A model generated the notes under the pieces. It saw nothing but the letters and a program-made list of their open reading frames with translations. It did no database searches and was not told the DNA's origin. 64,000 nucleotides of DNA, from assembly GCA_039809645.1 (NCBI GenBank), contig JBDHVK010000001.1, positions 32,802 through 96,801 on the forward strand, in the 5' to 3' direction. Made by a program: the position numbers and the translations under genes. This DNA comes from Gemmatimonas sp. (GTDB lineage Bacteria; Gemmatimonadota; Gemmatimonadetes; Gemmatimonadales; Gemmatimonadaceae). Of this stretch, positions 13,545 through 30,030 are shown in pieces (within the stretch, counting starts at the first letter, position 1; each line of letters begins with the position of its first letter).

Positions 13545-14135
13545 GTGAGCCCTCCCGCCCCTGCGCCCGACTCGTCCGGTCCCTCGCTCACCGAGCTCCT
13601 CCGTACCGCGCAGGCGGGAGATCCTGCGGCGCAGGATGCGGCCGCCAGCATGGTCTACGATGAATTGCGGCAACTCGCGTCCGTCTATCTGGAACGGGAG
13701 CGCCACGACCACACGCTGCAGCCCACCGCCCTCGTGAATGAGGCGTACCTCCGGCTGCTCGGACAGGACACCCCCTGGCGCAACCGCTCGCATTTCATCG
13801 GCATTGCCGCGCAGATGATGCGCCGGGTGCTCGTGGACCACGCGCGCCGCAGTGCGGCGGACCGGCGGGACCGCGCCAGCACCGTGCGTCTCGAGGACGT
13901 CGGTCCGCTGCCGCTCGAAGCGCAGGTCGATGCGCAATCGGTCATCGACGTGCACGACGCGCTGGAAGAATTGGAGCGCATGGACGCCCGTCAGGCCAAG
14001 GTCGTCGAGCTCAAGTTCTTCGTTGGTCTGTCGCTCGACGAGATCGCCGACGCCCTTGGCATCAGCGCCGCCACCGCCAGTCGCGAGTGGGCGCTCGCCC
14101 GCCGGTGGCTGCAGCATCGTCTGCGGAGCGAGTGA
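13545..14135 (+). CDS. ECF-type RNA polymerase sigma factor (kinase-associated ECF family)
   Basis: LTELL...AGD...VYDELRQLASVYLERERHDHTLQPTALVNEAYLRL is the hallmark N-terminus of the Sigma70_ECF-type family. The C-terminus has a region 4 HTH (GLSLDEIADALGISAATASREW). Start assigned to GTG 13545, and the track ORF from 13368 is probably too long. Confidence 0.8.
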   Translation: MSPPAPAPDSSGPSLTELLRTAQAGDPAAQDAAASMVYDELRQLASVYLERERHDHTLQPTALVNEAYLRLLGQDTPWRNRSHFIGIAAQMMRRVLVDHARRSAADRRDRASTVRLEDVGPLPLEAQVDAQSVIDVHDALEELERMDARQAKVVELKFFVGLSLDEIADALGISAATASREWALARRWLQHRLRSE

Positions 14136-14196
14136 GGGAGTTTCCAGAGCCTTCACGCGTTGTCGGTATGAACCCGTCCCTCGGAGCCGTGGAGCA

Positions 14197-16800
14197 ATGA
14201 CCGCGACGCTGACGCCGGACGAATGGGCGGCGCTCAAGGCCTGTTGGGAGATTGTGCAGGCCCTGCCGGCTGATCAGCAGGCGACCTATCTCGCGCACGC
14301 GCCACTCTCTCCGGCCGCGCGCGAGACGCTGCGGTCGCTGTGCGAGGTCGACGACACCGCGCCCGCACATGTCGACCGGCCCGCCCACGAACTGCTGGGA
14401 CTCCCGTCGGCCCGACCGGCGCCGGCACCCTCGATGGTGGGCCGGCGGCTGGGCGCCTTTCAGGTCCTTCGCCTGATCGGTCGCGGCGGCATGGGAGCGG
14501 TGTACGAAGCCGAGCGTGTCGACGCGGAGTATCGGCAGCGGGTCGCCATCAAGACGGTCTGGCGGGGAGCGGACAGTGACGTGCTCCTCCAGCGGTTCCG
14601 CTCGGAACGGCAGATTCTCGCCGCACTGCAGCATCCCAACATCGCGCAGCTGCTCGATGGCGGCAGTACCGCCGAAGGGACGCCCTGGCTGGCGATGGAG
14701 TTTGTCGAAGGGACACCCATCGACGAATGGTGCGACGCGCGCCAGCTCGGTCTGTCGGCACGACTCGACCTGTTCCGTCAGGTCTGCGCCGCCGTGCATC
14801 ACGCGCATCAGCGGCTCGTGGTACACCGGGACCTCAAGCCGTCCAACATTCTGGTCAACGCCGAGGGGACGGTAAAACTGCTGGACTTCGGCGTGGCCAA
14901 GCTGCTGGCGCCCGATGCGTCCGACGGCACGCTCACCGGCGCCGGACTCTCGCCGTTCACCGCTGCCTACGCGGCCCCGGAACAACTCGGCAACGCACCC
15001 ATCTCCACGGCGACCGATGTGTACGCGTTGGGGGGCATTCTGACGCTGCTGCTGGCCGGCGCTCCGCCGCGCGCGCTCGCCGGCGGGCTCACGCCGGAGA
15101 AGTTCGCCGCCCGGCATTTGCAGCCGGCCCGCTCTCCCAGCCAGATCGCGCAACAGGCACCATCCGATGTCGCCCGCGCGCGCGGTGTGGCCACGGCTGC
15201 CCGGTTGGCCGCGTCGCTTCGCGGCGAGCTCGATGCGATCGCCGGCATGGCGCTCCGCGCCGAGCCGGTGCGTCGATATGCCAGCGTCGAGGCATTGAGC
15301 GACGACGTGCGGCGCTATCTGCGGCGCGATCGCGTCATCGCCCGTCCCGATGGCACCTGGTATCGGCTGTGGACCTTCGTTCGCCGACGTCGGGCGTTGA
15401 GCGCCGCGGTCGGGGCGACGTCGCTCATGCTGGTGGTCTCCAGTCTCGTCACATGGCGCCAGTCGCAGGCGGCCGTCGCCGAAGCGCGTCGCGCCGAGCG
15501 GGCCGCCACCTTTCTCTCGGGACTCGTCACCGGCTCGAATGCGACCTCGTACGATCCCCTGGTGCGGCTGGCGCCTGGTGGTACCGTGGCGCAGCTGCTC
15601 GACAGTGCGCTGGTGCGCATTCCGCGCGAGTTCCCGAACGATGACCGGATGCGCGCGCGCCTCTACACGGCGATCGGTGCGAACCTGCTGAATCAGGCGC
15701 GCGTGCAACCCGCACTGGCCGTGCTCGACTCGGCGCAGCGACTAGCCGGCGCGGCGTACGGCCGGCGCAGCGTGGAGTACGCGAGGGCGAGTCTGGAGTA
15801 CGCGGCGCTGCTGCTGGATCTCGGTGGGCCACCGGCAACCGAGGCGCTGCTCAACGAGGCGGAAGCCATTGCGCGCGCCAACCCGGCCGAGCAGGATCTG
15901 GCGGCGCGCGTGGCCCTCTTTCGCGCCTCGCGTGCCATGCAGCTCGGTCGGATCAGCGAGGCCGATTCATTGGCCGCGGCCGTGCTGGCCAGCGAACGGG
16001 GGGGCGCGCGCAGCATGCGCTCGTTGCGTGCCGAAGCGGTGCGCATGTATGCCTCGAGCTGGATTCGCCGCGATCCGCGAGACTATCTGCGGCGGGCGCG
16101 TGCGGTGCAGAAGTTGGCCGATTCCCTCGGCCTGTCGGCCACGAACGAAACGATGAGCGCCCGCAGCGCCGAGTTCGAGTCGCTGCTGGTGCTCGGACGG
16201 ACCACGGACGCGGAGGCGGCGCTCAAACGGTTGCGCGCCGGTGTGACGTTGGACGCGGATACGACAGCGTCGGCCCGCGCGCGCTACGCCTATCAGCGCG
16301 CCTACCTGGCGTCGGTGGCTGGCGATTCGGTCGCGCGCCGATCGTCAGCGGACGAACTGCGCGCCGTGCTCGCGACCAACCCCACGCTGGGCGCCGACGT
16401 GCGGCTGCAGTACATGGGGACCATCGTGGATGAGGCGCTGGCGCGGCACGACACCACGGTGGCGCTGGCCGCTGCGCGCGAGTGCCGCCGTCTCTCCCTG
16501 CCCACCGAGTCGCCCATGATACTCTCGTTCGCCGCCTGGTATCTCGGACAGGCGGAGCTGGCCGCCGGGCATGCGCAATCCGCACTCGACGCCGTGCTCG
16601 AGGGGCAGCAGTGGGTGGCGCGTGCGCCGGAACTCGCCAGCATGAACCCACTGCTGCGGCGCGTGCAGGTTGGCGCCCTCACGGCCCTCGGACGTGCCGG
16701 CGAGGCCGATAGCATCCGGGCCAGTGTGCCCAAGCCGGGGGCGATTGCGCCGTGCACGCCGGGCGGGAAGTGGAAGGGGTGTCCGGATCTGCCGCCCTGA
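14197..16800 (+). CDS. Ser/Thr protein kinase with TM and large C-terminal TPR-like helical repeat domain
   Basis: Start at ATG 14197. Kinase motifs GRGGMGAVYEA, VAIK, HRDLKPSNIL, DFG and APE, then a TM (ALSAAVGATSLMLVVSSLV) and about 450 aa of helical repeats. Confidence 0.9.
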   Translation: MTATLTPDEWAALKACWEIVQALPADQQATYLAHAPLSPAARETLRSLCEVDDTAPAHVDRPAHELLGLPSARPAPAPSMVGRRLGAFQVLRLIGRGGMGAVYEAERVDAEYRQRVAIKTVWRGADSDVLLQRFRSERQILAALQHPNIAQLLDGGSTAEGTPWLAMEFVEGTPIDEWCDARQLGLSARLDLFRQVCAAVHHAHQRLVVHRDLKPSNILVNAEGTVKLLDFGVAKLLAPDASDGTLTGAGLSPFTAAYAAPEQLGNAPISTATDVYALGGILTLLLAGAPPRALAGGLTPEKFAARHLQPARSPSQIAQQAPSDVARARGVATAARLAASLRGELDAIAGMALRAEPVRRYASVEALSDDVRRYLRRDRVIARPDGTWYRLWTFVRRRRALSAAVGATSLMLVVSSLVTWRQSQAAVAEARRAERAATFLSGLVTGSNATSYDPLVRLAPGGTVAQLLDSALVRIPREFPNDDRMRARLYTAIGANLLNQARVQPALAVLDSAQRLAGAAYGRRSVEYARASLEYAALLLDLGGPPATEALLNEAEAIARANPAEQDLAARVALFRASRAMQLGRISEADSLAAAVLASERGGARSMRSLRAEAVRMYASSWIRRDPRDYLRRARAVQKLADSLGLSATNETMSARSAEFESLLVLGRTTDAEAALKRLRAGVTLDADTTASARARYAYQRAYLASVAGDSVARRSSADELRAVLATNPTLGADVRLQYMGTIVDEALARHDTTVALAAARECRRLSLPTESPMILSFAAWYLGQAELAAGHAQSALDAVLEGQQWVARAPELASMNPLLRRVQVGALTALGRAGEADSIRASVPKPGAIAPCTPGGKWKGCPDLPP

Positions 16801-16819: not shown

Positions 16820-17386
16820 CTACGATGACCAGAGCTTCACGCCTTCCGCGATGCTGACGAGCGCCCGGTGGAACCGGCGCACGAGCTCCACTCGATTTTC
16901 GTAGTTCGCGGCAGTGCGAACCGCCGTCACGTTCGTGTCGGGAGCCTGGAAGGCGAGGCCATATCGGTGCAGCGACTCCCGATGCAGCGACGTGGCGCTC
17001 TTACGGAGTACGTCGGCAGTGCGCGGCGGCTGGCCAGTGGCCTGATCGGCCAGTGTGATCAGCCCGCCCACGACCTCGGCCACGCCGCGGATGTGCTGCT
17101 CGCACTTGTTGCCTTCGCCATTGACGGGCAACAGGCGGTACGCTTGCGTCAGCTGTCGATCAGCGTCGCGAACGGATGCCGCGGGTGATGCAGTCGCTGC
17201 CCCGATATCGATGCGGCAGATCCGCCGCCAGAGTGCAACGGTGGACTCGGTGGCCATGTACAGTCGGTCGACCTGACGATAGAACGGGTCGTCCGCTGAT
17301 TCGATGGAACCGCTCAAATAGTGCCGAACGCGGGCGAGCTCCGGCTGCGCGCCGGCGAACGTGCCGTAGACGAGGCCCCGATCCAT
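16820..17386 (-). CDS. Hypothetical protein (helical, no signal peptide), immediately downstream of the NlpC/P60-like gene
   Basis: 188-aa ORF with genome-typical GC3-rich codons, starting 18 nt after the upstream stop. No motif recognised. Confidence 0.6.
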   Translation of the reverse strand: MDRGLVYGTFAGAQPELARVRHYLSGSIESADDPFYRQVDRLYMATESTVALWRRICRIDIGAATASPAASVRDADRQLTQAYRLLPVNGEGNKCEQHIRGVAEVVGGLITLADQATGQPPRTADVLRKSATSLHRESLHRYGLAFQAPDTNVTAVRTAANYENRVELVRRFHRALVSIAEGVKLWSS

Positions 17387-17404: not shown

Positions 17405-18367
17405 TCAGTGATCGATGGTCAGTTCGACGGACGCCGGCTTGATGCCGGTGATTTCGTCTTCCACGCGGCCGCGGCGCAGGTTCACGTGCGTGCCCGTACC
17501 GGTCGAACGACCGACTTCCAGCAACCCGTTGGAGAACGAGAACCACAGCGCGGCGACGCCGTCGGTCATCGAGCACGTGCCGTGATGCTTGAACATCTTG
17601 TACGACTTGCCTGTGGTGTCGGTAATGACCGCGCTGATCAGATCCGGTGTGCCGGCCTGCCCGTTCACGACGACCTTGCCGTCGCGACTGATCATCACCG
17701 ACAACGCGCCAACCGCCTTGCCACGGAACTTGACGCTGACGGAGCCATGGCGAAGCACCAGTCGCGTGCACTGATCGGCGACGCGCGTGGGAATCACGTC
17801 CGGGTGGTAGCCGGGCCTGCCGGGAGCGCCGCCCAACGCACGTGGACGGCGCACTTCGACGACCGGTCCCTTGAAGGTGCGATCGATGGAGCGATGATGC
17901 ACGATGCTGCCACTGCCCGCGTCATAGATCATCCCGGGTGACAGAGACGCGATGCCGACGTGGGTGATCGTGCCGTACGGATAGTTCCCGAACGTGTTGC
18001 GATAGAGGACGATGTCCCCGGCCCGCGCCTCGCCGGTCACCAGATCGCCGACGTCGCTCCCCGCGAGTCCATCGGCGGTGTACAGTCCGCCGACGAAGCG
18101 AATGCCGAAACGTCGATAGAACTCCGGGTTGCCGACCACCGGGAGCGCGATCCCGACCCCGTCGAAGCACCAACGCACATAGGCGGCGCAGTAGGCCTCG
18201 AGCGTGCTGCCGTGGTGCACCTCACTGAACGTACGGGCAAACGGCTGGTGGAGCACCGACTGCGCGCGCGCCAGCAGCGCGTGCACGATGGAGCCGCGTG
18301 CCGGCTGTTCCAGCCGCGACACGGGACGATGAGCGTTCATCTGCTTGTCGTATCCGACTGTCGGCAT
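17405..18367 (-). CDS. NlpC/P60 (CHAP-like) papain-fold cysteine peptidase/amidase domain protein with unknown beta-rich C-terminal domain
   Basis: Start at ATG 18367 with GGAG 7 nt upstream. Candidate catalytic Cys in EAYCAAYVRWCF and His in GDIVLY...GTITHVGIA, in NlpC/P60 order. No signal peptide or TM. Confidence 0.65.
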   Translation of the reverse strand: MPTVGYDKQMNAHRPVSRLEQPARGSIVHALLARAQSVLHQPFARTFSEVHHGSTLEAYCAAYVRWCFDGVGIALPVVGNPEFYRRFGIRFVGGLYTADGLAGSDVGDLVTGEARAGDIVLYRNTFGNYPYGTITHVGIASLSPGMIYDAGSGSIVHHRSIDRTFKGPVVEVRRPRALGGAPGRPGYHPDVIPTRVADQCTRLVLRHGSVSVKFRGKAVGALSVMISRDGKVVVNGQAGTPDLISAVITDTTGKSYKMFKHHGTCSMTDGVAALWFSFSNGLLEVGRSTGTGTHVNLRRGRVEDEITGIKPASVELTIDH

Positions 18368-18654
18368 CGTCAGGCTCCGTCGTGGACAGAAATGCGCAGG
18401 TAAGCGCGCGAATACCTCCCAGGAGAACGCGCAAACGGCGGCCAAACTCCGTCATTCAACCGCATTCATTGACGCGCGTCCGACGCGTTGTTGACAGCAT
18501 GAACCGATGCGGCACATGTTTGCCGAAGACGTCGCACGCGATCGCTCCACGTGGAGGCACGACGCGGTTGCATGACACGAATGTCGTGCGCGCACGTCAC
18601 CGTACCGGCGCTCGGGCTCGGTACCACCATTTGCCGTTCGATCCCGGAGGAATC

Positions 18655-19027: not shown

Positions 19028-19471
19028 TCACAGCTGGTGACGATACACCATCAGGGGCATGCGTACCGCCACCTGATCGTACAATCCCTGCGATACGGTG
19101 TTGGTCACGAGTGTGGTGCCGTACACATGGTCGGCACCCAGGACGGCGGCACGCGCGAAGACGGCCTCCACGAGCGCGCGCGCGACACCGCTGCGTCGGA
19201 CATCCCACGCGGTGAACACGTCGGAGAGCAGGCAGACCGGTTTCGTCCACCACGGGTGCGGATGCAGGAGGTAGTGGGCAATCCCCACCAGTCGTTCGCC
19301 CGCAAAGGCGCCGAGGCCGTGCATCGCGACCGTGTCCTGCATGAGCCGGTCCCAGGTGTCGGCAGGCGCATCCTCCGGCCACATGCCGTGATAGCCGAGG
19401 TACTCCAGCCAGAGCGGGCGCCACGCCTCGTGATCGGCGGGCCCGAGGGGCCGAATCGCGACCGCGGTCAC
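19028..19471 (-). CDS. GNAT family N-acetyltransferase
   Basis: 147 aa. The acetyl-CoA binding segment (VRRSGVARALVEAVFARA) sits in a typical GNAT layout. The GTG start overlaps the kinase stop (GTGA). Confidence 0.8.
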   Translation of the reverse strand: MTAVAIRPLGPADHEAWRPLWLEYLGYHGMWPEDAPADTWDRLMQDTVAMHGLGAFAGERLVGIAHYLLHPHPWWTKPVCLLSDVFTAWDVRRSGVARALVEAVFARAAVLGADHVYGTTLVTNTVSQGLYDQVAVRMPLMVYRHQL

Positions 19472-21522
19472 GGCTCGCAGCGCAGCTTCTTCTCGAGGGC
19501 GGTGCGGTTCTCCCGCAGGGTCGCCGGCGTCGCGGCGCCGGCGGTCGCCTGGGCGAGCAGCGTGCAGGCCTTCGACTTGTCGCCGAGAATGGCGTACGAC
19601 GTGCCCAGATAGAGCGAGGCCCAGCCAAGCTCCACGCCATTGTGCAAGCGCGGCAGCAGCGCCTGCACGTCGCGAATGAGCGACCTGGCGCGCGCACGGC
19701 GCGTGCTTTCATTGCGGCTCGTCAGGTCGGCCTGCGCATCGCTGATGACCGTGGTGAGCGCGATCGACGCCTCGGCCTCGGCCGACAGGCGCGGCGCGCG
19801 AGCCGAGTCGCGCTCGTCGCGCGCCGTCGCCGCCTTTGGACGCGTGGTCGAATCGGCGGCACGACGGACGCGGGATTTGGTGTCACCGGTGTCGCGGGAG
19901 ACGGCGACTGGCGCTGACGTCGGCGAGCGAACCGGAGCCGTGGCCATCGTTCCCCCACTGGCCCGTGCCCGCGCCATCGTGCTGTCCGGCTTCTTCGTGA
20001 GCGGACGGGTCGTGTCCATGGCATCGGTCTGCGCGGGCGTGCCCGGACGCGCGGCCGTTGGTGACGCCACGAAGGCAGTGTCCGCGACGCTCGCCGCCGG
20101 TGCTGCCGCACTCGGGTCGGCGTTGGTCGCGGCCACGCGCGGCGCGGCCGGCTCGCGCCTGGCGAGAACCACGGCGATGAGCAGGATGGCGGCGATGGCG
20201 CCGACGAGCACGAACAGCGGAATGCGACGTCCCTTGTGCGCGAGCGCGAGCTCCACGGTGGTTTGGACCGCGTCGTCGGAGCGCGCCGCCGGAGCCGCGG
20301 TGCTGAACGCCGACGTCGACGTCTCGAGGAGCCGCGCTCCGCTGCCGACGGTTGTTTCACCCAGCAGCGTGGAGCGGGTAACCGAGCGCGTCGTGGAGTC
20401 GGCCGCGTCAGGCTGATCCGCGAGTGAGGTGTCAGGAGGTAGGGTGCCTTCGTCGTCCAGTGACGGCACGGCCGCCGGAGTAGGTTCCGTCTGCGCGAGC
20501 AAGACCGGTTCCTCCGTCTGCGCCAACAGCGCGGACGCAAGGGTGGGCGGCGTGAAGGCCATCGTCGCCGATGGACCGTCGATGATCCGTCGGAGTTCGC
20601 GCGCGAAGGCGACCGCTGACTCCGGACGGACGGCAGGATCGCGCACCAACGTGCGGGAGAAGAGCGCCTGCAGCGGCGCCGGCCACGCGATATCCGGTCG
20701 GACCTCGATGAACTCTCGCGCCGGCGCCGACAGGCGTGCGAGCATCTCTTCCTGCTCGGAGCTGCCCACGAAGGCGCGCGCGCCCGTGAGCATACTGAAC
20801 GCCAGCAGCGCCAGCGAGTACACATCGCTGCGGGCGTCGAGTGCCTGACCCAGCAGCTGCTCGGGACTCATCCACTTGGGGGTTCCGATTGCAAACCCGG
20901 GGGCGGTCTTGCCTTCGGCGTCGGAATCCTCGAGCAGCTTGGCGATGCCGAAGTCGAGAACCTTCACCCGTACGCTTCCATCGTCTTCTTCGACGACCAT
21001 CACGTTCTCAGGTTTGAGATCGCGGTGGACGATGCCCAACCGATGCGCGGCGTTCAGGCCCTCGGCGATCATGTGCACGATCGCCGCCGTCTCGCTGAAA
21101 GACAGGGTGCCACGCGCATCGAGCAGCTGGCGCAGCGTTCGGCCGTTCACGTACTCCATCACCAGAAACGCCCGCCCGTCGGTCATGAAGCCGAAGTCCG
21201 TGACGCGGGCGACCCGATCATGATTGATACGGCTCGCGGCCTCCGCTTCATGGCGGAAGCGCCGCACGACCGATGGATCCGTCGTACCGGCATCACGGAG
21301 CACCTTGATGGCAACCTGTTGCGGAAGACGGACATCGCGCGCGAGGTAGACGGCGGCCATGCCCCCTTCGCCGAGCAGATCGGTAGCGACGTACCGTTCA
21401 CAAAACAGTTCGCCGATCAGATCGTCGCCCGTCACGGTCGCACGAAGCGCCGACCCGTCGCGCGGGCAGAACGTGGCCGCGTCGGGAAACGTCTCGCCAC
21501 AGAGCAGGCAGGTCTTGGACAC
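19468..21522 (-). CDS. Ser/Thr protein kinase (PpkA-like by position) with N-terminal zinc ribbon, TM and C-terminal helical periplasmic domain
   Basis: Zinc ribbon CLLCGETFPDAATFCPRDG. Kinase motifs GEGGMAAVYLA, VAIKVL, HRDLKPENV, DFGIAK and SPEQ. TM IPLFVLVGAIAAILLIAVVLA. The ATG directly abuts the tssM stop codon. Confidence 0.9.
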   Translation of the reverse strand: MSKTCLLCGETFPDAATFCPRDGSALRATVTGDDLIGELFCERYVATDLLGEGGMAAVYLARDVRLPQQVAIKVLRDAGTTDPSVVRRFRHEAEAASRINHDRVARVTDFGFMTDGRAFLVMEYVNGRTLRQLLDARGTLSFSETAAIVHMIAEGLNAAHRLGIVHRDLKPENVMVVEEDDGSVRVKVLDFGIAKLLEDSDAEGKTAPGFAIGTPKWMSPEQLLGQALDARSDVYSLALLAFSMLTGARAFVGSSEQEEMLARLSAPAREFIEVRPDIAWPAPLQALFSRTLVRDPAVRPESAVAFARELRRIIDGPSATMAFTPPTLASALLAQTEEPVLLAQTEPTPAAVPSLDDEGTLPPDTSLADQPDAADSTTRSVTRSTLLGETTVGSGARLLETSTSAFSTAAPAARSDDAVQTTVELALAHKGRRIPLFVLVGAIAAILLIAVVLARREPAAPRVAATNADPSAAAPAASVADTAFVASPTAARPGTPAQTDAMDTTRPLTKKPDSTMARARASGGTMATAPVRSPTSAPVAVSRDTGDTKSRVRRAADSTTRPKAATARDERDSARAPRLSAEAEASIALTTVISDAQADLTSRNESTRRARARSLIRDVQALLPRLHNGVELGWASLYLGTSYAILGDKSKACTLLAQATAGAATPATLRENRTALEKKLRCEP

Positions 21523-24500
21523 CTACTGCGCGACCTGTGGTGCACAGGTGAACCCGCCCAGCCATCCCCGCTTGAGGACTGGGGCGCCCGACGCATCGAG
21601 GAACTCGAAGTCGATGACGATGGGGACCCCGTTGCGCTTGTTGGCCGGCGCGGGCCAGGTCACGTGCACGATGCGTCCACTCGACTCGCTTGCACCCTTG
21701 GCCACCAGACGGAACAGCGCCCACTCACCGGTAGCCGACGCGATCAGCGTGGGTCGCTCGTTGCCGAAGCGCGCCTCGATGGAGGCGGAATTGCCCTCGG
21801 GCAGTTGGGGCCAGGTGACCACGTTCTGCGGGCTCTTGCTGTCGAAGCGCGACTCCTTCGGCCCGTGCTTGAAGATCACCAGCGGCGTTTCCGCACTGGT
21901 CTGGGCGATGGCCGTCCAGCGCAAGCGCGGCGTTGGATTGATGTCGTTGTAGAGCGCGTTCGACACGATGGCCGCGCGATTGAAGAACTCCACGAAGCCG
22001 GGAAGCAGTGAGACACCGCGTACCGAACGCGCGACCCAGCGGCCATCGCGCTTGACGAGATATGGCGCGAGTTGCTCTCGATAGAATTGCCACAGCTTCC
22101 CAGTCCCGGGTGCGAGCAGCGCGTTCACGTCGGCCATCGAGGCCTCGGCCGTCGCGTTCGGGTTGAAGGGATACTTGTTGAGCATGGGTGCCATCTCGGT
22201 GCAGAGGCGCGCATTGCGATCGTTGAGCGCCTGGGCCGCGGGGCTCGAAGCCGGCTGTACGTCGGCCACGCGCGTGCCCCGCGGACGCTGCGCTGCCGCA
22301 GTGCGCAGCACGCCGTCAGCGCCGTTGATCGGCTCGAGCAGCAGGCGCTCCACCGGCTGCGCCATGGAGGGGACGGTCGTGAGGATGAACGCTTGCGAGA
22401 CCCGCTTGGTCGCGGCACGCGCGTTCGTCACGCTGCCCCCGGCCGCCAGCGCGGCGCGATTGAGCTCCTCGGTGGAGGCACTGTCACCAGTGTACGGCAC
22501 GTTCGCCACCTGGGCGATGGCCCCCTGCAATCCGAGCAGGCCGTCCACGTAGGGCTGATTCTTCTCCGACACGATGCGCCCGACGACCTCCGGTGGCGTG
22601 ACCGCGTGCACCGGTTGGAAACGGGTCCGCGAGAGCGAGTCGAAGTTGGTGTTGAACGCCGTGACCTGCAGCAGTTCGAGCAGCGGCGAGTTGTTGTTCG
22701 ACAGCACCTCCAGCTTGTACGCGGCGTCCTTGAGGGACGACGGGCGCACCACCACTGCGGACTGTACGACCTGACGCCAGATGCGCGCGTAGTCGTCGGC
22801 ATAGCGCAACTGCAGCATGGACTTGTCGACCGACTGGCTCTTGGGATACTCGCCCAGCACCCAGAGCTCGCCATCGTAAGTGCTGTCGCTGACGAGTCGG
22901 GCCCGCATCAGCGCCGCGCCTCGGGCGGTGAATGATCCCGGCACCTCGGTCATCGACGTGAAGACCCCAGGCGTCTGCCGCAGCTTGAGCGCCGGCACTT
23001 CCTTGTCCGTACGCGTCAGCATGTTGCGATAGATCTGCTCGCCACCGGCGAATCGGTGCAGGAAGTCGCGCGTGCGATTTCGTAGCGGAAGATCAGGATT
23101 GCGCGGCCAGGGGTTGTACCAGGGCAACTCGCTGGAGTAGAAGTCGAACTGCCGCATGGACAGCTCGGTCACGTCCGCTTCCAGCGTCTGACCGCGTCGC
23201 CCGCTCTCGTACAACACCGGGGACAGGAACTCCTTGGTGCTGCGTGCCGACTCCGACGTGGTGATCAGGTACGCCTTGAGCCAGTTGTAGGACTTGGCGT
23301 AGTCGTTGGTCGGGCCGGGAAGTTCGGGGAGGGCCTTGAGCGAGTCGACAAGGGTATTGAATCCGGTCTGGAACAGCGCGAGCCGGAAGCCTTCATACCA
23401 GATCGGGCGCGCAGCATCGAAGAGCGCCGGGCCCCGCCAGAGCCCGAAGCGCATGAGGAGCGGCGGCCCCTCCTGCATGACGGCGCGAATGGTATCCAGG
23501 CGTGCGCGCAGCAGATCAAGGCTGCGCAGCGCCTGTGCACTCGGATAGGTAATCGTTCCCGGCGTATTGGGGATAACCGGCAACGACGCCACCGCGCGGG
23601 CAGCGTCTGCCACGCGCGCTGACAGCGCCCGGTTGCGCGCCCAGGACGTCGTGATGCTCGCGAGCAGCAATGCGGTGAGACCGATCGCGCCGCTCAGCAG
23701 CAGGCGACGCGTGGCCTGCACCTTGACGCCGCCTCGGGCCACAAGCGCCGCGCTGGCGTCCGCGAGGACGACGTCGCGCAGGAAGCGATCGAGAAACACC
23801 CACTCCGGCACCTTGCGGGACACCGCGTGCGACAGCGCCGCCTGCGCCGCGACCTCGCGCTCGTTCAGGATGCGTGTGGCGTTCGCCGCGACGGCGGTGG
23901 CCGGCACGACCGGCTTGGCCACGTCGCTCACCACGACCGGCCGCGCCCCAGTGAAGTAGAAGCCGCGCAGCTGCGGACTCGAGCCAAGCGCGGTGGGGCG
24001 GCACAGATCCACGAGAAACGACGTGACGGCCGGCGCCAGCTTGCGCAGCTCGCGCGGCAATTCATACGCCTGGTACCGCCGCTCCTGCCGTTGCTCGCGA
24101 CCGAGAACGTTCACCCGCCGAAGCGCGATCGTGTCGGCGACCTGTCGGAACGCCAGGTCGATGCGCGGCGCGAGGCGATCGGCGTAGTTGCCGGGGTTCG
24201 CGTCGGCGTCGAAGGGCAGGGTTGCACCCAGCGGCGCCTTCAGCTCGTCGCGCGTGAACACCGAGATCCACGGCTCGAACTGCGGCACCTTGTCCATGCG
24301 CGTGAACATCACATAGACCGGGAGCCCAAGCCCCAGCTCGAGCGAGGCTTCGGCCAGGCGCTGACGGAGGGTGTGCTGGAGTTCCTCCAGCTGCTGGCCA
24401 CCGGCTCCGGCGTAGAACAGGTCGATGGGCACGCAGACGACGGCCGAGCGCGCGGCCGGCTCTCCGCGTCCGAGCGCGGCGCGCAACCGCGGCGCGCGCA

Positions 24501-25023
24501 GGGCGCGGACCACCTTGGCCCAGCGCGCCACGTCAACCAACAGCGGTCCGCCCAGTTCCGTGATCACCGCTTGCTGCATGACCCAGACGTTCACCGTGCG
24601 CGTCGGTTGCGGTGATTCGTTGGGCGCGGTGGGCGCGAGCCCGGCGAGCAGTTCGGGCGCGCCCCCCGAGCGCGCCACCACCGAGGTCTTCGCGCTTCCC
24701 TGCGCGCCCAGCACGAGAACCATTGGACGCTGCAGGAACGTGCCATGCGGGAGTCGCGTGCTCGCGCCGTGAATGGCGAGCAGGACATCGTCGCCCGTAT
24801 CCATCGGCACATCCTCCTGGGGCCGCAGATACCAGAGCAACGCGCCGGCGGCAATCGCACCGAGCACCACGAGGCCCACTCGCATGGTCCAGCGGCCGGT
24901 GGCATCCAGCGTCAGCGTCCGATCCAGAATGATCAGCAGCAGCAGAAAGGCCGCGAACGTGACGCCGGCCAGGAGCCAGCGCGTCGACCGCTTTTGTGCG
25001 ACGACCGCACCCTGGGGAGTCAT
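21523..25023 (-). CDS. tssM: Type VI secretion membrane subunit TssM (IcmF)
   Basis: About 1166 aa. N-terminal TMs, Walker A VLGAQGSAKTS, and the long IcmF-like periplasmic region. Start chosen at ATG 25023, which forms an ATGA overlap with the tssL stop. Confidence 0.9.
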   Translation of the reverse strand: MTPQGAVVAQKRSTRWLLAGVTFAAFLLLLIILDRTLTLDATGRWTMRVGLVVLGAIAAGALLWYLRPQEDVPMDTGDDVLLAIHGASTRLPHGTFLQRPMVLVLGAQGSAKTSVVARSGGAPELLAGLAPTAPNESPQPTRTVNVWVMQQAVITELGGPLLVDVARWAKVVRALRAPRLRAALGRGEPAARSAVVCVPIDLFYAGAGGQQLEELQHTLRQRLAEASLELGLGLPVYVMFTRMDKVPQFEPWISVFTRDELKAPLGATLPFDADANPGNYADRLAPRIDLAFRQVADTIALRRVNVLGREQRQERRYQAYELPRELRKLAPAVTSFLVDLCRPTALGSSPQLRGFYFTGARPVVVSDVAKPVVPATAVAANATRILNEREVAAQAALSHAVSRKVPEWVFLDRFLRDVVLADASAALVARGGVKVQATRRLLLSGAIGLTALLLASITTSWARNRALSARVADAARAVASLPVIPNTPGTITYPSAQALRSLDLLRARLDTIRAVMQEGPPLLMRFGLWRGPALFDAARPIWYEGFRLALFQTGFNTLVDSLKALPELPGPTNDYAKSYNWLKAYLITTSESARSTKEFLSPVLYESGRRGQTLEADVTELSMRQFDFYSSELPWYNPWPRNPDLPLRNRTRDFLHRFAGGEQIYRNMLTRTDKEVPALKLRQTPGVFTSMTEVPGSFTARGAALMRARLVSDSTYDGELWVLGEYPKSQSVDKSMLQLRYADDYARIWRQVVQSAVVVRPSSLKDAAYKLEVLSNNNSPLLELLQVTAFNTNFDSLSRTRFQPVHAVTPPEVVGRIVSEKNQPYVDGLLGLQGAIAQVANVPYTGDSASTEELNRAALAAGGSVTNARAATKRVSQAFILTTVPSMAQPVERLLLEPINGADGVLRTAAAQRPRGTRVADVQPASSPAAQALNDRNARLCTEMAPMLNKYPFNPNATAEASMADVNALLAPGTGKLWQFYREQLAPYLVKRDGRWVARSVRGVSLLPGFVEFFNRAAIVSNALYNDINPTPRLRWTAIAQTSAETPLVIFKHGPKESRFDSKSPQNVVTWPQLPEGNSASIEARFGNERPTLIASATGEWALFRLVAKGASESSGRIVHVTWPAPANKRNGVPIVIDFEFLDASGAPVLKRGWLGGFTCAPQVAQ

Positions 25024-25748
25024 CGGGGCGTCGGCGCCGCGATCGGCGACGTGATCGCCGACGCGGGCAGGAGGCGTCGAATACCTTCGGACATGCTGCG
25101 CAGGGCGACGCCGTACGACACCCACAGCACCAGCAGCAGCGCCGCGCCGCCGATGGCCGCGTAGGAGAGCCGCACCATCCACGGATCGCGATGATTCACC
25201 CGATCCTGCGGTGGCATCCACGACGGCGCGAGATCACCCAGCGGCCCGCGCAGGCGTCCCAGACGCTCGTCGATCCGCGCCGTGATCGCGTGCAGCTGCC
25301 CGTTCTCCATCGAGCCGTACTTGCCGTGAAACCCCAGCAGGAGGCACAGCTGATGCACCTCGAGCAGCTCGGCCAGTTCAGCCGAGTCGCCCCGGGCCAG
25401 CAGCTGTTCGATGTGCTGAAAGACCCATTCCCCACCCATGTGCGCGCCGAACAGCTCGTCCTGCAACGGACGACGCGCCCAGTCGGCGAACGCCGGACTG
25501 CGAAGGTTGAGCACGGACTCGTCGAGGAACGACACCACGGCAAAGATCGCGATCCGCGCATCCTGCGCCGTGAAGCCGAACGCGATGGCGTCCTGCTCGG
25601 CTCGGGCCAGGAGACTCGTGACATGACCGCGGAATGCGAGCGCGTCGGAGATCGGCTGTTCGTTGGCGCGCAGCCGCACCACGGCCGTCAGAAACTCCTG
25701 GAGGGCAATGGCGAGGCGCCCGGGAGCTGCGTGTGTTACCGCCGTCAC
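25020..25748 (-). CDS. tssL: Type VI secretion membrane subunit TssL (DotU family), no OmpA/PG-binding extension
   Basis: DotU-like core (ARIAIFAVVSFLDESVLN...HQLCLLLGFHGKY) and a single C-terminal TM. Start assigned to GTG 25748, 19 nt after the tssK stop. The track ORF start at 25865 overlaps tssK. Confidence 0.85.
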   Translation of the reverse strand: MTAVTHAAPGRLAIALQEFLTAVVRLRANEQPISDALAFRGHVTSLLARAEQDAIAFGFTAQDARIAIFAVVSFLDESVLNLRSPAFADWARRPLQDELFGAHMGGEWVFQHIEQLLARGDSAELAELLEVHQLCLLLGFHGKYGSMENGQLHAITARIDERLGRLRGPLGDLAPSWMPPQDRVNHRDPWMVRLSYAAIGGAALLLVLWVSYGVALRSMSEGIRRLLPASAITSPIAAPTPR

Positions 25749-25767
25749 GAGCCGGTGGGAGTGAGAG

Positions 25768-27171
25768 TCATTCGGGGAGCAGGACCGCCACTTCGAGGTA
25801 CGCGCCCGGAATGCCCTGTGGCACGTAGACGCCGAGTTCCTGCGTCTTGGTGAGCGACGTGGCACAGCCGCCGGTCATGGTGAACTCGAAGTAGGTGAGA
25901 TCGACCTTGGGCGCGATCGCCGATGGCGGCACGGGGATGTGGATCGTCGGCAATCCATTCCATGCACGGTTCACGAGCTCCAGCACGTACGCACTGGCGC
26001 ACGACTTGGTGAGCCGTTGCACCCGATCGATCAGGTCCGCACGCGGAAGATCGGCGCGCACCGCGAGGAACCAGCGCGTGCCGGGCAGGAACGCGCGCGG
26101 ATCGGCGATGCGGGCCGTATGCAGAATGTCCGTCGACTGCTGCAGCGGAACGATGAGTGCCCGCGTGGACACGACGGCCTCGAGTTGCGCCTGAATCCGG
26201 TGCTCGAGCGCGGCGAATACTTCGGTCAGGTCGTCGTGGTCGTAGGCGGGCAGCGTGCGGGCGGTCGCGCCGATGGCGAACGTCGACAGTGCACCGGCCA
26301 GACGCGAGAGCTCGAGAAAGAGCTGCTCGGGATGGGCTGTGCGCATCAGTAACTGATGTCGCAGCGGGGCCTCCGCCGAGCGGATGGCGTGCAAGAGCCA
26401 GTGCGTGGCGAGTTCGTTCCCCGCATACGCCGCCGCGCCGCCGACGGCGCCGATCGGCGCCTGCGACAGCGAGGCGGCGAGCGCACCGCCCTTGCTTTCC
26501 ACGAGCGTGACCGTCCGACGTGCGAGCTCCATCAGCCGCGCACTCGACCCGATCTGCAGCGTGGGTGGCACGAACGCCGCATCCGGCACGAAATGCCCGC
26601 GCCCGTCGCGTCGGACACGCGCCACGGGCATCGAGATGACATCATCGGTGACTTCTTCATCGAGCAGGAGATGGAGATTGCGCGCGGCAAACCGCACGTC
26701 GAGTGGATCGCGACCCGTCGCTTCATCCACCACACGCGCTTCTACCACCTGATAACGCGCAAAAGCCGGCCGAATCATGTCATCGGTGTGTTCGGATCCG
26801 GGGATTTCGGTCACGTTGGCCGCGTCTGAACGCCAGCGCGGGATCGCGAGATGCACGGTGTGCATGTCGCGTGTGGGGGAGAAGCGCTCGGCGAGTGCGA
26901 TCGGTGCGGGGAGGCCGTCGCCGCCTGGCGCATGGACCACTGTGCCGTCGGGAAGTACGCCGCGCAGCAGGACGAGGGCGAACGTCCCATTGCGCAGGGC
27001 ATCGCTGTCGACGGCGATCGCCGAGAGGCCGTAGGCGTACGCGATCAGCAGATCCAGTGTCCGGGTCGTCTGCTCTTCCTGATAGCGGCGCTGCGCCTGA
27101 AAGTGTTGCGGGGTCAGGTGCATGCCGTCTTCCCAGACGACGCGACGCGAGGGAACGGCGGGGAGTTGCAT
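25768..27171 (-). CDS. tssK: Type VI secretion baseplate subunit TssK (paralog 1)
   Basis: N-terminal VVWEDGMHLTPQHFQAQRRY signature, about 467 aa, with a C-terminal LGVYVP...LEVAVLL. Confidence 0.9.
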   Translation of the reverse strand: MQLPAVPSRRVVWEDGMHLTPQHFQAQRRYQEEQTTRTLDLLIAYAYGLSAIAVDSDALRNGTFALVLLRGVLPDGTVVHAPGGDGLPAPIALAERFSPTRDMHTVHLAIPRWRSDAANVTEIPGSEHTDDMIRPAFARYQVVEARVVDEATGRDPLDVRFAARNLHLLLDEEVTDDVISMPVARVRRDGRGHFVPDAAFVPPTLQIGSSARLMELARRTVTLVESKGGALAASLSQAPIGAVGGAAAYAGNELATHWLLHAIRSAEAPLRHQLLMRTAHPEQLFLELSRLAGALSTFAIGATARTLPAYDHDDLTEVFAALEHRIQAQLEAVVSTRALIVPLQQSTDILHTARIADPRAFLPGTRWFLAVRADLPRADLIDRVQRLTKSCASAYVLELVNRAWNGLPTIHIPVPPSAIAPKVDLTYFEFTMTGGCATSLTKTQELGVYVPQGIPGAYLEVAVLLPE

Positions 27172-27198
27172 GAGATTCTCCGCTGCGGCAAAAAGAGG

Positions 27199-27218
27199 GA
27201 TGCGTGCTGCAACGCATC
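27199..27218. promoter_or_regulatory. Inverted repeat in the divergent tssK1 / pseudokinase intergenic region (candidate operator)
   Basis: GATGCGT-gctgca-ACGCATC lies 28 nt upstream of the tssK1 start. Two further GATGCG hexamers occur near 27240 and 27302. Confidence 0.25.
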
Positions 27219-27343
27219 ACGTGCGCATTGCGTTCGCGACGATGCGCGTGAACAATTGTGGGCGACGCGCGCGGATAACACCAGCGGTCCGATCCGCACA
27301 CCGATGCGTTCGTGATCGGGTCCTTTCATCAGAGACCACGGCA

Positions 27344-28642
27344 ATGCATGACGACTTCAGTGCCCGCTATCGCCTGCTGAAATGCGTGTTGGTGGCGGAT
27401 GGCATTCGTTCGCACAACGCGCAGGAGTGTGCAAGCGGACGAGTGGTGATGGTGCACATCTCCGATGCGGCCGGCCCCGAGGAGGTCGAATCGCTGCGCG
27501 CACAACTGGCGGCGTTGCCACTCGACGATCGGAACCGTGTGCTGGAAGCGGTCACGCTCCCCTACGGATTCGCGATCGTCACCGAGTTCTTGCCGGCGCC
27601 GTTGACGTTTCGTGAATTCCTGTCGCGGGCGGCGGATGCGGCCCCGCCCCTCACATCGCCGGCTTCGCCCGTGCCAACGGCGGCCACCGCCGATTCCTTC
27701 ACGGCGGTGTTCGGCAGGCCGACACCCGCTGAACTGCCGCCGATCTTTGCTCCGCCAGTCGTCGAGCAGGTGACCGTGCGGCTCGACGACGAGCCCGTCG
27801 CAGCGCCAAACGCGGCGATCGAACCACCATCCGCCCCCGCCCCCGCCCCCGCCCCCGCACCACCACCGGAGGTGGCAACGCCCGCGCGCATGGAACCGGG
27901 TGAGTTCACGCGCCTCTTCGGCGCACCGGAAACGGCCGCACCGCTCCCTGAGGCGATGCGCCCTTCACCGATGCACGAAGCGCCCCCGCCCGCCTTCTCG
28001 CCGTTCACGCCGGAGCGTCAGCTCGAATCGCCGCCGGTCGAGCCACGCCATCGCGTGATGAGCAGTCAGCCGCAGTATCTCACCGGCGTCCAGCAGGACG
28101 GGCCATCACCCATCGCGCCCAACGTCGTGAGCGGCGGATTGCATACGAGCCTGTCACCGCTCACGCCACTCGCACCCACACCAGCGCCGCCGCCGCCACA
28201 TGCCTCGCCGCTCTTCGCGGCGGCCGGCCCGCCGCCAGCAGTGAGCGGCACGCCCTCCCTCACGCCTGGCATTCTGCCGCCGCCGGTGTTCAACAGTGGC
28301 ACGGCGACACCACTCTCGGCGCTTGGCGGCGCTGCGCCGCTGGTGAATGCGAGTGCCGGGCCCAGCGAGTTCACGCGACTCATTTCGGGTGCGGCCGAAC
28401 CGGTCGTTCCACCGCTCGCGCCGACCGCCCCCCTCACACCGGGGCGCGCAACGGCGCCGAACACACGCCGCTTACCCAACGGCTTGATCGTCACGATCAA
28501 TGCGGTCCTGCTCATCGCGGCGCTGCTGATGTGGTTCGTCCTCCGCCGCCCGGTGCCCACGGTCAATACAGTCCTGCCCGGTCGTCCGCGAGTCCCCACG
28601 ATGCCGAACGCTCCGCAGATCCCGACCACGCCGGCGCGGTAA
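27344..28642 (+). CDS. Membrane-anchored proline-rich protein with N-terminal kinase-N-lobe-like (pseudokinase) domain
   Basis: Start at ATG 27344. The first approx. 95 aa parallel a kinase N-lobe up to the hinge, but lack the Gly loop and the VAIK lysine. No catalytic or activation loop motifs. About 300 aa are Pro/Ala-rich, including APAPAPAPAPPP. Three xFT(R/A)(L/V)(F/I)(G/S) motifs are present. C-terminal TM LIVTINAVLLIAALLMWFVL. Confidence 0.75.
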   Translation: MHDDFSARYRLLKCVLVADGIRSHNAQECASGRVVMVHISDAAGPEEVESLRAQLAALPLDDRNRVLEAVTLPYGFAIVTEFLPAPLTFREFLSRAADAAPPLTSPASPVPTAATADSFTAVFGRPTPAELPPIFAPPVVEQVTVRLDDEPVAAPNAAIEPPSAPAPAPAPAPPPEVATPARMEPGEFTRLFGAPETAAPLPEAMRPSPMHEAPPPAFSPFTPERQLESPPVEPRHRVMSSQPQYLTGVQQDGPSPIAPNVVSGGLHTSLSPLTPLAPTPAPPPPHASPLFAAAGPPPAVSGTPSLTPGILPPPVFNSGTATPLSALGGAAPLVNASAGPSEFTRLISGAAEPVVPPLAPTAPLTPGRATAPNTRRLPNGLIVTINAVLLIAALLMWFVLRRPVPTVNTVLPGRPRVPTMPNAPQIPTTPAR

Positions 28643-28683: not shown

Positions 28684-30030
28684 CTACTTGAGCAGCATCA
28701 CCAGTTCGAAGCGCGCGTCGGCCAGACCCTCCGGCACGTAGACGGCGAGGTTGCGCGCCAGAACGATCGCCTCCCACGCCGCGCCCGTTTTGGCCACCGC
28801 GAAGTACTGAAAGTCGAGCTGCACCGGCACGGCACCGGGCGGCGACGCGACATGCGTAAGCTCCATGCCGGGCAGTGCCTGCCGCACCAGCGTCTCCACC
28901 ACGTCGGCTGCGCCAACCTTGCACCCCTGCAGCACGCGCGCGATAAGGTCGTGCTGACGACCGGCCCCCGAGACGGCGAGGAACCACTGTGGCGCGTCCA
29001 GCCATGTCGGCTGCTCGATGGCCACCGCATGCAGCGTCGGCCGCACCACCTTGAGTGGCAGCGAGACGACCGTATCCACGATCGCGCCATCGAGCAGCTG
29101 GTACAGCAGTCGTTCGAGATCGGCGAAGCACTCACCGAGGCGCAGATGATCGTAGGTGGGCATCACACGCGCTTCGAGGCTCGTGCTGAACGAGCCGAGC
29201 GCCCCCACCAGCTGCAGCATGGCTTCCCACAGTGCCGACGGATGGCCCTGTCGCGTTTCGGCGAGGTGACGCAGGCCGGGGAAGTGCGTGTTGACGGTGT
29301 AGAGCAGCCAGAACGCGCCCACGTCGGCCACCGAGAAGTCGGTGAGACCGAGATTCCGCTGGCGCCGGCTGCCGGACAGCGCCGCCGCACGTGCGGCCAG
29401 CCGCTCGACGAGCCGACGGGCCATCTGCTGCAGGGCGTCGCTCACGGCAAAGTTCACGACCGGGGGAACGAACGTGTGGTCGAACGCGTAGGCGCCGAGT
29501 GCTGTGCGCTGCAGCCGGGCCACGGGCAGCGTGGTGTAACCATCGCTGTTCTCGCCCTCGAGCAGGATCTTGAGGCTCGGTGGCGCGACCTGAATGGGTC
29601 GTTCGGCGAGCCCTGTCGTCTCATCGCGGACCAGTTGCTCGTCGATCTGCCATCGCGCCGCCGCGGGCTCGCCAGGTCGCGTGATGTTGCGGGCGCCGGG
29701 CCGATACTCGGGGATGGCGAGATACGCCATCACGGAGCGCTGGTCGGCACCGAAGGCATCGGCAATCAGCTTGGGCGCTGGGGTGGGGCCCGCCGCCGGC
29801 GCATCGAACAGCAGACCATCGGGAAAGCGGCCACTCGCGCTGTTGATTACGAGCGTGCCCGCTTCCAATGCCGCATGATCGAAGGTCAGCTCGGCGAAGC
29901 CCCACGGACAGAAGAGCAACGCGCCGATCTGAAAGGCGAGGGTGTCCTCGTGATGGCGGTCCTGCGCCTGCAGATGCTGCGGCGTGAGGAGTACGCCCTT
30001 GGTCCAGAGCACGGGTTGGAGTTGGCGCAT
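28684..30030 (-). CDS. tssK: Type VI secretion baseplate subunit TssK (paralog 2, divergent)
   Basis: N-terminal VLWTKGVLLTPQHLQAQDRH signature, 448 aa, with a C-terminal LAVYVPEGL...FELVMLL. Clearly homologous to paralog 1 but strongly diverged. Confidence 0.85.
   Translation of the reverse strand: MRQLQPVLWTKGVLLTPQHLQAQDRHHEDTLAFQIGALLFCPWGFAELTFDHAALEAGTLVINSASGRFPDGLLFDAPAAGPTPAPKLIADAFGADQRSVMAYLAIPEYRPGARNITRPGEPAAARWQIDEQLVRDETTGLAERPIQVAPPSLKILLEGENSDGYTTLPVARLQRTALGAYAFDHTFVPPVVNFAVSDALQQMARRLVERLAARAAALSGSRRQRNLGLTDFSVADVGAFWLLYTVNTHFPGLRHLAETRQGHPSALWEAMLQLVGALGSFSTSLEARVMPTYDHLRLGECFADLERLLYQLLDGAIVDTVVSLPLKVVRPTLHAVAIEQPTWLDAPQWFLAVSGAGRQHDLIARVLQGCKVGAADVVETLVRQALPGMELTHVASPPGAVPVQLDFQYFAVAKTGAAWEAIVLARNLAVYVPEGLADARFELVMLLK

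Follow-up and report, generated by a model that had tools for sequence, protein, structure and literature searches.

A membrane-anchored protein with a predicted kinase N-lobe is conserved between two tssK genes in type VI secretion loci of Gemmatimonadota

A 64,000-nucleotide stretch of Gemmatimonas sp. DNA (GenBank assembly GCA_039809645.1, contig JBDHVK010000001.1, positions 32,802 to 96,801 of the forward strand; hereafter the window) carries a type VI secretion system (T6SS) in which a gene, here called X like its product, lies between two tssK paralogues. According to profile comparison and structure prediction, the protein starts with the N-terminal lobe (N-lobe) of a protein kinase, continues as a long proline-rich tether with a recurring threonine motif and ends shortly after a single transmembrane (TM) helix. 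X represents an undescribed, widespread, T6SS-embedded protein family, which is real and under selection, and its role in this T6SS is probably that of a new component, either regulatory or scaffolding. As its function we propose, with a probability of about 0.4 and judging from the sequence, a phospho-switch scaffold: the N-lobe would be an interaction module and the Thr motifs would be phospho-acceptor or docking sites, which would make X an analogue of Fha1 or phospho-TssL. A first-pass annotation of the window, made from the letters alone, had described an N-lobe-only kinase remnant with a Pro-rich region and a membrane anchor between two tssK genes, and profile comparison, structure prediction, fold search and family conservation all agree with this description.

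A predicted kinase N-lobe at the N-terminus of X

Kinship of the N-terminal domain with kinases is significant only at the level of profiles or structures, since pairwise comparison and domain searches stayed blank. BLASTP of X against the neighbouring Hanks-type Ser/Thr kinase, which is encoded directly downstream of tssM, aligned nothing in the N-terminus and returned only a weak TM-to-TM match (E=0.16), and X had no Pfam or NCBIfam match. The Pfam kinase profile (PF00069, Pkinase) did not match X, and for 67 diverse N-lobes of the family Pfam returned nothing but scattered noise at E<10, with no Pkinase match among it. At the profile level, a 27-sequence X profile was aligned by hhalign with six Ser/Thr kinases of the window and related loci at E=2.1e-5, and a 67-sequence profile (members at most 60% identical, drawn from the exhaustive search described below) was aligned with the local kinases at E=1.6e-6, with a probability of 90% over 94 columns. 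In this alignment, ARYRLLKCV... of X pairs with ERYVATDLLGEGGM... of the kinase, VVMVH with VAIK, FAIVTEFLPAPLTFREFL with FLVMEYVNGRTLRQLL and VTEFLPG...L with VMEYVNG...L, which reproduces the register of an earlier alignment made by eye.

The structure prediction is in agreement with the profile comparison. AlphaFold2 (AF2) modelled the domain with a predicted local distance difference test score (pLDDT) of 87 alone and of about 95 in the full-length run, and the order of the elements is β1-β2-β3-αC-β4-β5-αD. In a Foldseek search against the PDB, protein kinases only were found among the top 50 matches listed, and their query-normalised TM-scores ranged from 0.57 to 0.71; the matches listed include the pseudokinase of Mycobacterium tuberculosis MviN (Rv3910; 3uqc) at 23% identity. 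When the hidden Markov model (HMM) of the family was run over 4,532 open reading frames (ORFs) from the window and 55 related loci, the best match outside the family was a genuine kinase. The first-pass annotation had allowed for a different α/β fold at the N-terminus; fold search, profile comparison and AF2 all gave a kinase N-lobe instead, and an FHA-like or other fold was rejected on the Foldseek result.

That the kinase resemblance is spurious, with some other α/β fold behind it, or that the ORF is a decayed kinase pseudogene, is very improbable. Such an explanation could draw on the Pkinase profile, which matches no single member, on Foldseek E-values that reach no better than about 1e-3 for so small a domain, and on a possible bias of AF2 towards a common fold. 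It could also draw on the comparison of the 27-sequence profile (residues 1-94) with PDB sequences, in which the dozens of matches to MARK, MNK, PAK and PknA kinases were marginal (E=0.02-1.6), although all of them fell on N-lobes and in one register. At the top of the family HMM's matches in that comparison stood spurious ones, to armadillo-repeat proteins of artificial design and to a hypothetical protein of small size that matched on a short helical stretch, and we did not count the PDB-sequence matches as evidence by themselves. Against a chance resemblance stands the agreement of three independent lines in one register, together with the exclusively kinase-like fold matches among the top 50 listed and the kinase as best match outside the family. 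A pseudogene is excluded by an architecture that is conserved over hundreds of clusters with invariant His38 and Ala26 residues; a frameshifted or decayed kinase gene was rejected on the same family-wide architecture.

Column by column, the family has lost what a kinase N-lobe needs for catalysis. The Gly-rich loop reads V-x-V-x-D-G in place of GxGxxG, the diverse members all (67/67) carry His38 in place of the catalytic Lys of β3, Met or Leu at position 36 stands for the Ala of VAIK, and the position of the αC Glu is occupied by Leu, Arg or Gln. Both substitutions noted in the first reading, of the glycine loop and of the catalytic lysine, thus hold for the family, and the absence of everything from the catalytic loop onward is confirmed for X: no HRD, DFG or APE motif was found in the X sequence, and past residue 99 the full-length AF2 model contains only disorder, two helices of 6-7 residues at motifs 2 and 3 and the TM helix, without any C-lobe. 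This architecture is shared by 120/130 family members. Because C-lobe, Gly-loop and catalytic Lys are all lacking, the X N-lobe is catalytically dead and unable to phosphorylate anything. The term pseudokinase, used at first, is loose, as X contains no more than one half of a kinase fold. Since the fold is that of an N-lobe while C-lobe, ATP site and Pfam match are missing, X contains a kinase-derived domain and is neither a kinase nor a canonical pseudokinase.

A conserved family between two tssK genes

A homologue search in a collection of 5.8 billion proteins yielded 54 homologues, and when 1.84 billion representatives were searched exhaustively with HMMER, 935 clusters (50% identity) matched at E<1e-3, of which 408 also passed E<1e-10. 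All 54 homologues and all cluster members are either without a name or annotated as 'hypothetical protein'. The N-lobe domain is always N-terminal in the members from the exhaustive search, and among those with at least 300 residues (n=130), 119 carry at least two motifs and 120 a single C-terminal TM helix in a hydropathy scan.

The family also defines the start of the gene. In the ORF listing, X is enclosed in a longer frame (27122-28642, plus strand), but the 54 homologues all begin with M-[SHQ]-D-D-F, and in X this beginning falls on the ATG at 27344. We therefore place the start there, which gives a product of 432 residues and rules out the longer ORF; ORF listing and homologue starts thus bear out the coordinates given at first.

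For a genome survey, the GTDB species genomes were scanned with the closer alignment set, which biases the result toward Gemmatimonadota. It returned 43 loci, nearly all of them from metagenome-assembled genomes (MAGs) and isolates of this phylum. Cultured bacteria with the locus include Gemmatimonas isolates and Roseisolibacter sp. H3M3-2 (L020). By tblastn, the gene order is tssL-tssK1 (minus), X (plus) and tssK2 (minus), usually followed by tssB (plus). Both tssK genes flank X in 33/33 informative loci; the other 10 are cut by contig ends and none contradicts the order. Upstream of X, tssK1 was found in 42/43 loci, the exception being a contig end, and tssK2 lies downstream wherever the contig reaches. 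Two loci with a typical Gemmatimonadota-like X/tssK synteny, L023 and L024, stem from MAGs named Actinomycetospora and Candidatus Kuenenia stuttgartiensis, probably as a result of binning contamination.

The arrangement extends well beyond close relatives. X between tssK1 and tssK2 is kept in metagenomic relatives with 30-40% N-lobe identity (L005, L049, L050, L051, L052 and L053) and is also present in L001-L003, L054 and L055; the synteny holds in nine distinct metagenomic loci, with N-lobe identities as low as about 30%. The gene might have turned out not to be conserved with T6SS loci; the informative Gemmatimonadota loci and the distant metagenomic relatives answer this point in favour of conservation.

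One divergent homologue is found elsewhere. P0054 (L004, 10001-11902) combines an N-lobe with about eight motifs and a TM helix, and no T6SS genes lie within 10 kb of it, which means that the X module is not exclusive to the T6SS. Its neighbours in L004 are TonB-receptor, sulfatase and glycosidase genes.

A locus-encoded kinase accompanies X frequently, but not universally. Hanks kinases were found in the window, in L001/2, L003 (two), L005, L053 (two) and L055, and an FHA-domain protein is encoded nearby only in L005.

The tether, its threonine motifs and the membrane anchor

Beyond the N-lobe, X was described at first as Pro/Ala-rich, with a short motif that occurs three times and a TM helix about 40 residues from the C-terminus. 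The composition (24% Pro and 17% Ala over the tether, which contains APAPAPAPAPPP) and a regular-expression search, in which SFTAVFG, EFTRLFG and EFTRLIS were recovered, confirm the first two statements, and the position of the helix was approximately right (Table 1). Among homologues, the length of the tether is strongly variable and the alignment rich in indels.

The motif is a hallmark of the family. In a six-frame translation of the whole window, the regular expression matched three times, each time in X, and over the window and 55 related loci it matched 53/54 family ORFs and not one of the other ORFs, about 4,480 in number. That the motif is common to local kinases or to T6SS proteins at large can thus be dismissed, with zero matches outside the family. 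The family logo reads P-G-E-F-T-[RQ]-[LM]-F-G for the internal copies and G-P-S-E-[FY]-T-R-[ILM]-I for the last one. The central residue is Thr in 96-99% of the copies and Ser in at most 3%; Glu or Asp stands two residues before it in about 78%, and Phe or Ile at Thr+3. Most proteins carry 2-4 copies, typically 3-4. The distance from the last motif Thr to the TM helix is 26-46 residues in about 110/132 members, whereas the other spacings vary widely. At the two motif helices of the AF2 model, the confidence is raised to about 70.

Past the membrane, the tail is short throughout the family (median of 8 residues). As X has no signal peptide and a C-terminal TM helix, it is most simply taken as a tail-anchored inner-membrane protein whose functional parts are cytoplasmic.

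A putative phospho-switch scaffold and competing explanations

In the phospho-switch reading, the N-lobe would act as a protein-protein interaction module through the back-to-back N-lobe/N-lobe surface that serves bacterial Hanks kinases in allosteric activation. Its partner would be a second copy of itself, a receptor-type Ser/Thr kinase (for example the one encoded next to tssM), or both. The disordered Pro-rich tether would offer at least three P-G-E-F-T-x-[LM]-F motifs, the near-invariant Thr of which would be a phospho-acceptor or docking site of the paired kinase. Phosphorylation of the tether would then act as a switch on how the baseplate with TssK1/TssK2 is recruited to the membrane complex of TssL/TssM, and X would take the role that Fha1 or phospho-TssL has in the threonine-phosphorylation pathways of proteobacterial T6SSs. 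The more general suggestion of the first-pass annotation, that X could serve the tssM-linked kinase as a docking or allosteric partner, is plausible.

We read the Thr motifs as putative phosphosites because Thr strongly outnumbers Ser, the position two residues before is acidic, that at +3 is hydrophobic and the DFG+1 residue of the kinases is Ile or Val. A large hydrophobic residue at Thr+3 matches the substrate preferences of mycobacterial Hanks kinases and the pT+3 rules of FHA domains. The spacing of 26-46 residues between the last motif and the membrane fits a site presented to a membrane-bound enzyme. With regard to the N-lobe, Arg10 of PknB pairs with Asp76, and in X the aligned positions are R/K8 (59/67 diverse members) and E/D68 (54/67). 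In PknB-type kinases, the N-lobe/N-lobe contact allosterically positions αC, and Asp76 and Leu33 are the interface residues that were mutated to break the back-to-back dimer (PMC13434768).

Several observations weigh against a phospho-switch. Among the ORFs scanned in the T6SS block (19468-45609; small ORFs were not scanned exhaustively), no FHA, PP2C or TagF gene was recognised (nor was a TssJ gene), and the phospho-reader and eraser of such a pathway are accordingly missing. In L054, X and the two tssK genes are present and no kinase lies within 10 kb; this, like the homologue outside the T6SS in L004, weakens the docking-partner idea in its strict form. The DFG+1 residue is β-branched (Ile or Val) in all locus kinases and Ile in that of the window, which predicts a preference for Thr (PMC3898841), but both features are generic for bacterial Hanks kinases, so that this agreement is weak. 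The back-to-back surface is only partly kept, as Leu33 of PknB aligns with Thr/Ser31 of X. Finally, AF2 predicts helices at two motifs, and the motif Thr may have a structural part in a short helix of amphipathic character.

Part of these observations would be accommodated by a phosphorylation-independent structural adaptor, an explanation that we regard as possible but rather unlikely. X would then be a membrane-tethered link from TssL/TssM to a baseplate of two specialised TssK proteins, its N-lobe a generic binding domain and its motifs multivalent peptides that bind TssK, TssL or TssM. The two tssK genes and tssL/tssM are the only universal neighbours of T6SS-linked X, L054 lacks a locus kinase, and the scanned ORFs of the locus include no FHA or PP2C gene; three to four motifs per protein would suit multivalent binding, and with EssB/YukC a secretion machine is already known to use a kinase fold without catalysis as a scaffold. 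The tssK genes provide a rationale for an extra adaptor: each baseplate wedge contains two non-equivalent TssK trimers (PMC6300606), and TssK1 and TssK2 may be specialised for these two positions. Both paralogues are full-length and share 34% identity, and across related loci tssK2 is better conserved than tssK1 (58-78% versus 47-73% identity). Both are kept in every related locus. An adaptor does not explain, however, the strong preference for Thr over Ser, nor that X is transcribed separately from the structural genes and opposite to them. P0054, moreover, keeps N-lobe, about eight motifs and TM helix away from any T6SS, so that the partner of the motifs is unlikely to be TssK itself.

The partly conserved interface positions could also be explained by a brake or decoy, which we consider improbable. 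Here, the orphan N-lobe would cap the back-to-back surface of a Hanks kinase, or the motifs would be pseudo-substrates, and the kinase would stay inactive at the membrane as long as no signal comes, in a manner similar to TagF-type repression. The N-lobe lacks all that catalysis requires and yet keeps R/K8 and E/D68 at the positions of PknB interface residues, half-domains are classic dominant-negative partners, and a separate transcription unit on the opposite strand would permit independent dosage. On the other hand, strict conservation within a block of structural genes is more typical of a required component, and L054 demonstrates that the kinase is not always in the locus.

The motif helices and the remodelled ATP pocket, in turn, would be compatible with a self-associating multivalent scaffold, in our view another improbable explanation. 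The exposed face of the orphan N-lobe, which would normally contact the C-lobe or ATP, would bind the E-F-T-x-L-F amphipathic helices of the same or neighbouring molecules, and the resulting membrane clusters would mark sites of T6SS assembly. In agreement with this, N-lobe, motifs and TM helix travel together even outside the T6SS (L004 and the architecture statistics), the motifs are exclusive to the X family, AF2 predicts short helices at two of them, and the ATP pocket has, in place of its usual Ala and Lys, the conserved residues Met36 and His38. The case for self-association is purely inferential, however.

The phospho-switch reading can be extended to a bolder and quite doubtful proposal. 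X would be the founding member of an undescribed class of signalling modules, autonomous and membrane-tethered 'half-kinase' N-lobes, which would be obligatory in a distinct T6SS clade with two specialised TssK paralogues and would replace the Fha/PppA arm of the threonine-phosphorylation pathway; receptor Hanks kinases would be the allosteric partners of its N-lobe, and baseplate docking would be licensed by its multi-Thr tether as the phospho-switch.

What is known of the regulation and architecture of the T6SS comes almost wholly from two groups, Proteobacteria and Bacteroidota. The T6SS clade described here belongs to a phylum that is abundant in soil; its tssK is duplicated, and it has a further conserved gene, X, which no database annotates. 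If X is required, it would be a new accessory or core component of the T6SS and a new coupling of Ser/Thr signalling to its assembly. It would also be a natural isolated N-lobe under selection in hundreds of lineages and, as such, a clean system for N-lobe/N-lobe contacts without catalysis. The family (935 clusters) and the P-G-E-F-T-x-[LM]-F motif merit a domain and a motif definition.

Gene neighbourhood

The features of X and of the adjacent T6SS genes are collected in Table 1. As the first-pass annotation had stated, X is transcribed opposite to both flanking tssK genes, which were identified by PF05936. In the minus-strand unit, tssK1, tssL and tssM are directly followed by the kinase gene; the plus-strand unit past tssK2 consists of tssB, tssC, hcp, tagJ/impE, tssA, tssE, tssF, tssG, clpV and vgrG.

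Table 1. Gene X, its parts and the neighbouring T6SS genes, in positions of the window
Feature	Position	Strand	Description
Gene X	27344..28642 (stop codon included)	+	432 residues; predicted N-lobe-only kinase remnant, Pro-rich tether with Thr motifs, C-terminal TM anchor
N-lobe	27344..27625	+	Residues 1-94; predicted β1-β2-β3-αC-β4-β5-hinge-αD; degenerate Gly-loop, His38 in place of the catalytic Lys, no αC Glu
Pro/Ala-rich region	27626..28477	+	Residues 95-378; predicted disordered (AF2 pLDDT mostly <60)
Motif copy 1	27692..27712	+	ADSFTAVF, Thr120; aligned with GxFTxxF of homologues
Motif copy 2	27899..27919	+	PGEFTRLF, Thr189; invariant columns G186, F188, T189, F192; predicted short helix 187-192
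Motif copy 3	28364..28384	+	PSEFTRLI, Thr344; membrane-proximal variant, 35 residues ahead of the TM helix; short helix predicted at 342-348
TM helix (tail anchor)	28478..28546	+	Residues 379-401; AF2 pLDDT about 90
Pro-rich tail past the membrane	28547..28639	+	Residues 402-432, 31 residues
tssK1 (paralogue 1)	25768..27171	-	PF05936, E=3.2e-113; divergent from X; first gene of tssK1-tssL-tssM-kinase
tssK2 (paralogue 2)	28684..30030	-	PF05936, E=4.8e-128; convergent with X, divergent from tssB
tssM	21523-25221	-	IcmF Pfam domain; membrane-complex gene
tssL	25020-25865	-	DotU Pfam domain; membrane-complex gene
T6SS-linked Hanks-type Ser/Thr kinase	19471-21522	-	PF00069, E=1e-43; directly downstream of tssM; candidate partner of X

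The existence of a tssM-linked kinase was thus confirmed, and its minus strand, which had been missing from the initial description, is added here. Its catalytic motifs are intact (AIK, HRDLKPEN and DFGI), and it has one TM helix and a C-terminal extracytoplasmic region of about 230 residues without a Pfam match; residues 1-30, before the kinase domain, form a zinc-ribbon-like segment (Cys-x2-Cys...Cys-P-x-D-G). A GNAT acetyltransferase gene (19028-19471, minus strand; PF00583, E=1.3e-9) abuts its stop codon. A second Hanks kinase with a long C-terminal region (13852-16800, plus strand; PF00069, E=1e-39) is encoded about 3 kb from the T6SS block, and two kinases are likewise found around the T6SS in L003 and L053.

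Just outside the T6SS block, a 346-residue ORF (17408-18445, minus strand) with weak sub-threshold matches to CHAP (E=0.0015) and NlpC/P60 (E=0.0068) is followed by a 188-residue ORF without a match (16823-17386, minus strand); the two may be a peptidoglycan-hydrolase effector/immunity pair. Immediately after vgrG, the plus strand encodes a DUF6931 protein (43822-44517, E=1.2e-33) and then a protein with an FGE-sulfatase domain (44902-45609, E=1.3e-40), which may be VgrG-associated adaptors or cargo. In related loci, we observed an Hcp-ImpE/TagJ fusion of 419 residues (L003, 18670-19929) and an extra gene of 461 residues with both a VipA and a VipB domain (L050, 7565-8950).

Comparison with known systems

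In the literature on T6SS pseudokinases, the X motif, tssK duplication, the T6SS of Gemmatimonas and N-lobe-only kinases, we found no description of X. The 2025 catalogue of bacterial pseudokinase families lists EssB/YukC, ActPs1-3 including MviN, GLW, CP1, DYD and DLHK, none of which is N-lobe-only, T6SS-linked or from Gemmatimonadota (PMC12599244). Literature and catalogue fit the initial impression that no such component had been described for the T6SS. With the catalogued families X shares the TM helix C-terminal to the kinase-like domain, but it does not have their complete bilobal fold.

Half of a kinase fold can be kept as an autonomous, non-catalytic module. In eukaryotes, the soluble KIND domain (Spir, PTPN13, VKIND) is a non-catalytic kinase C-lobe with such a role in protein interaction. 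X resembles it in this respect, but retains the N-lobe, is bacterial and membrane-tethered, and has no homology to KIND beyond the kinase superfamily. To the back-to-back dimers of PknB-type kinases, X is linked by the two positions aligned with Arg10 and Asp76; in contrast to them, it has no C-lobe to activate, and the position of Leu33 is Thr or Ser.

Within the T6SS, Fha1 is built from a small signalling domain and a long Pro-rich region that bears Thr, and its gene lies near the divergent tssK-L-M / tssB-C junction. X is similar as a non-enzymatic protein of the locus with a small domain, a long Pro-rich Thr region and a gene near the same junction. It differs from Fha1/TagH in its membrane anchor and in having a kinase N-lobe fold instead of an FHA domain, for which no Pfam match was obtained in X. 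Switching of T6SS assembly by phospho-Thr is established for PpkA/PppA-Fha1 of the P. aeruginosa H1 system and for phospho-TssL and Fha of A. tumefaciens (PMC3953482). A Hanks kinase gene next to tssM/tssL is common to these pathways and the X locus, where, however, no PppA-type phosphatase, TagF or FHA gene was found and kinase linkage is not universal.

By analogy, MviN-FhaA-PknB is the nearest signalling precedent for X. In a 2012 study by Gee et al., the MviN pseudokinase is reported to be phosphorylated on Thr by PknB and then to recruit FhaA. In contrast to X, the kinase-homology domain of MviN is complete and is joined to a polytopic membrane protein of the flippase type. The reader of MviN is an FHA protein, none of which is encoded in the T6SS locus of the window, and MviN acts in cell-wall synthesis rather than in secretion. 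As a pseudokinase attached to a membrane protein, MviN (Rv3910) forms a back-to-back N-lobe dimer (PMC12599244).

The nearest functional precedent, again by analogy, is EssB/YukC of type VIIb secretion (T7SSb) in Firmicutes, a membrane pseudokinase that is a dimerising scaffold rather than an enzyme (PMC12599244; bioRxiv 10.1101/2020.05.09.085852). Like X, it is bitopic, has a cytoplasmic, catalytically dead kinase-fold domain and is encoded inside a secretion locus. The NCBIfam model T7_EssB does not match X, and the two proteins belong to different secretion systems, T7SSb and T6SS, in different phyla. While EssB/YukC combines a complete bilobal fold with a sizeable extracellular domain, X consists of an N-lobe only, a disordered Pro-rich Thr-motif tether of about 280 residues and almost no extracytoplasmic part.

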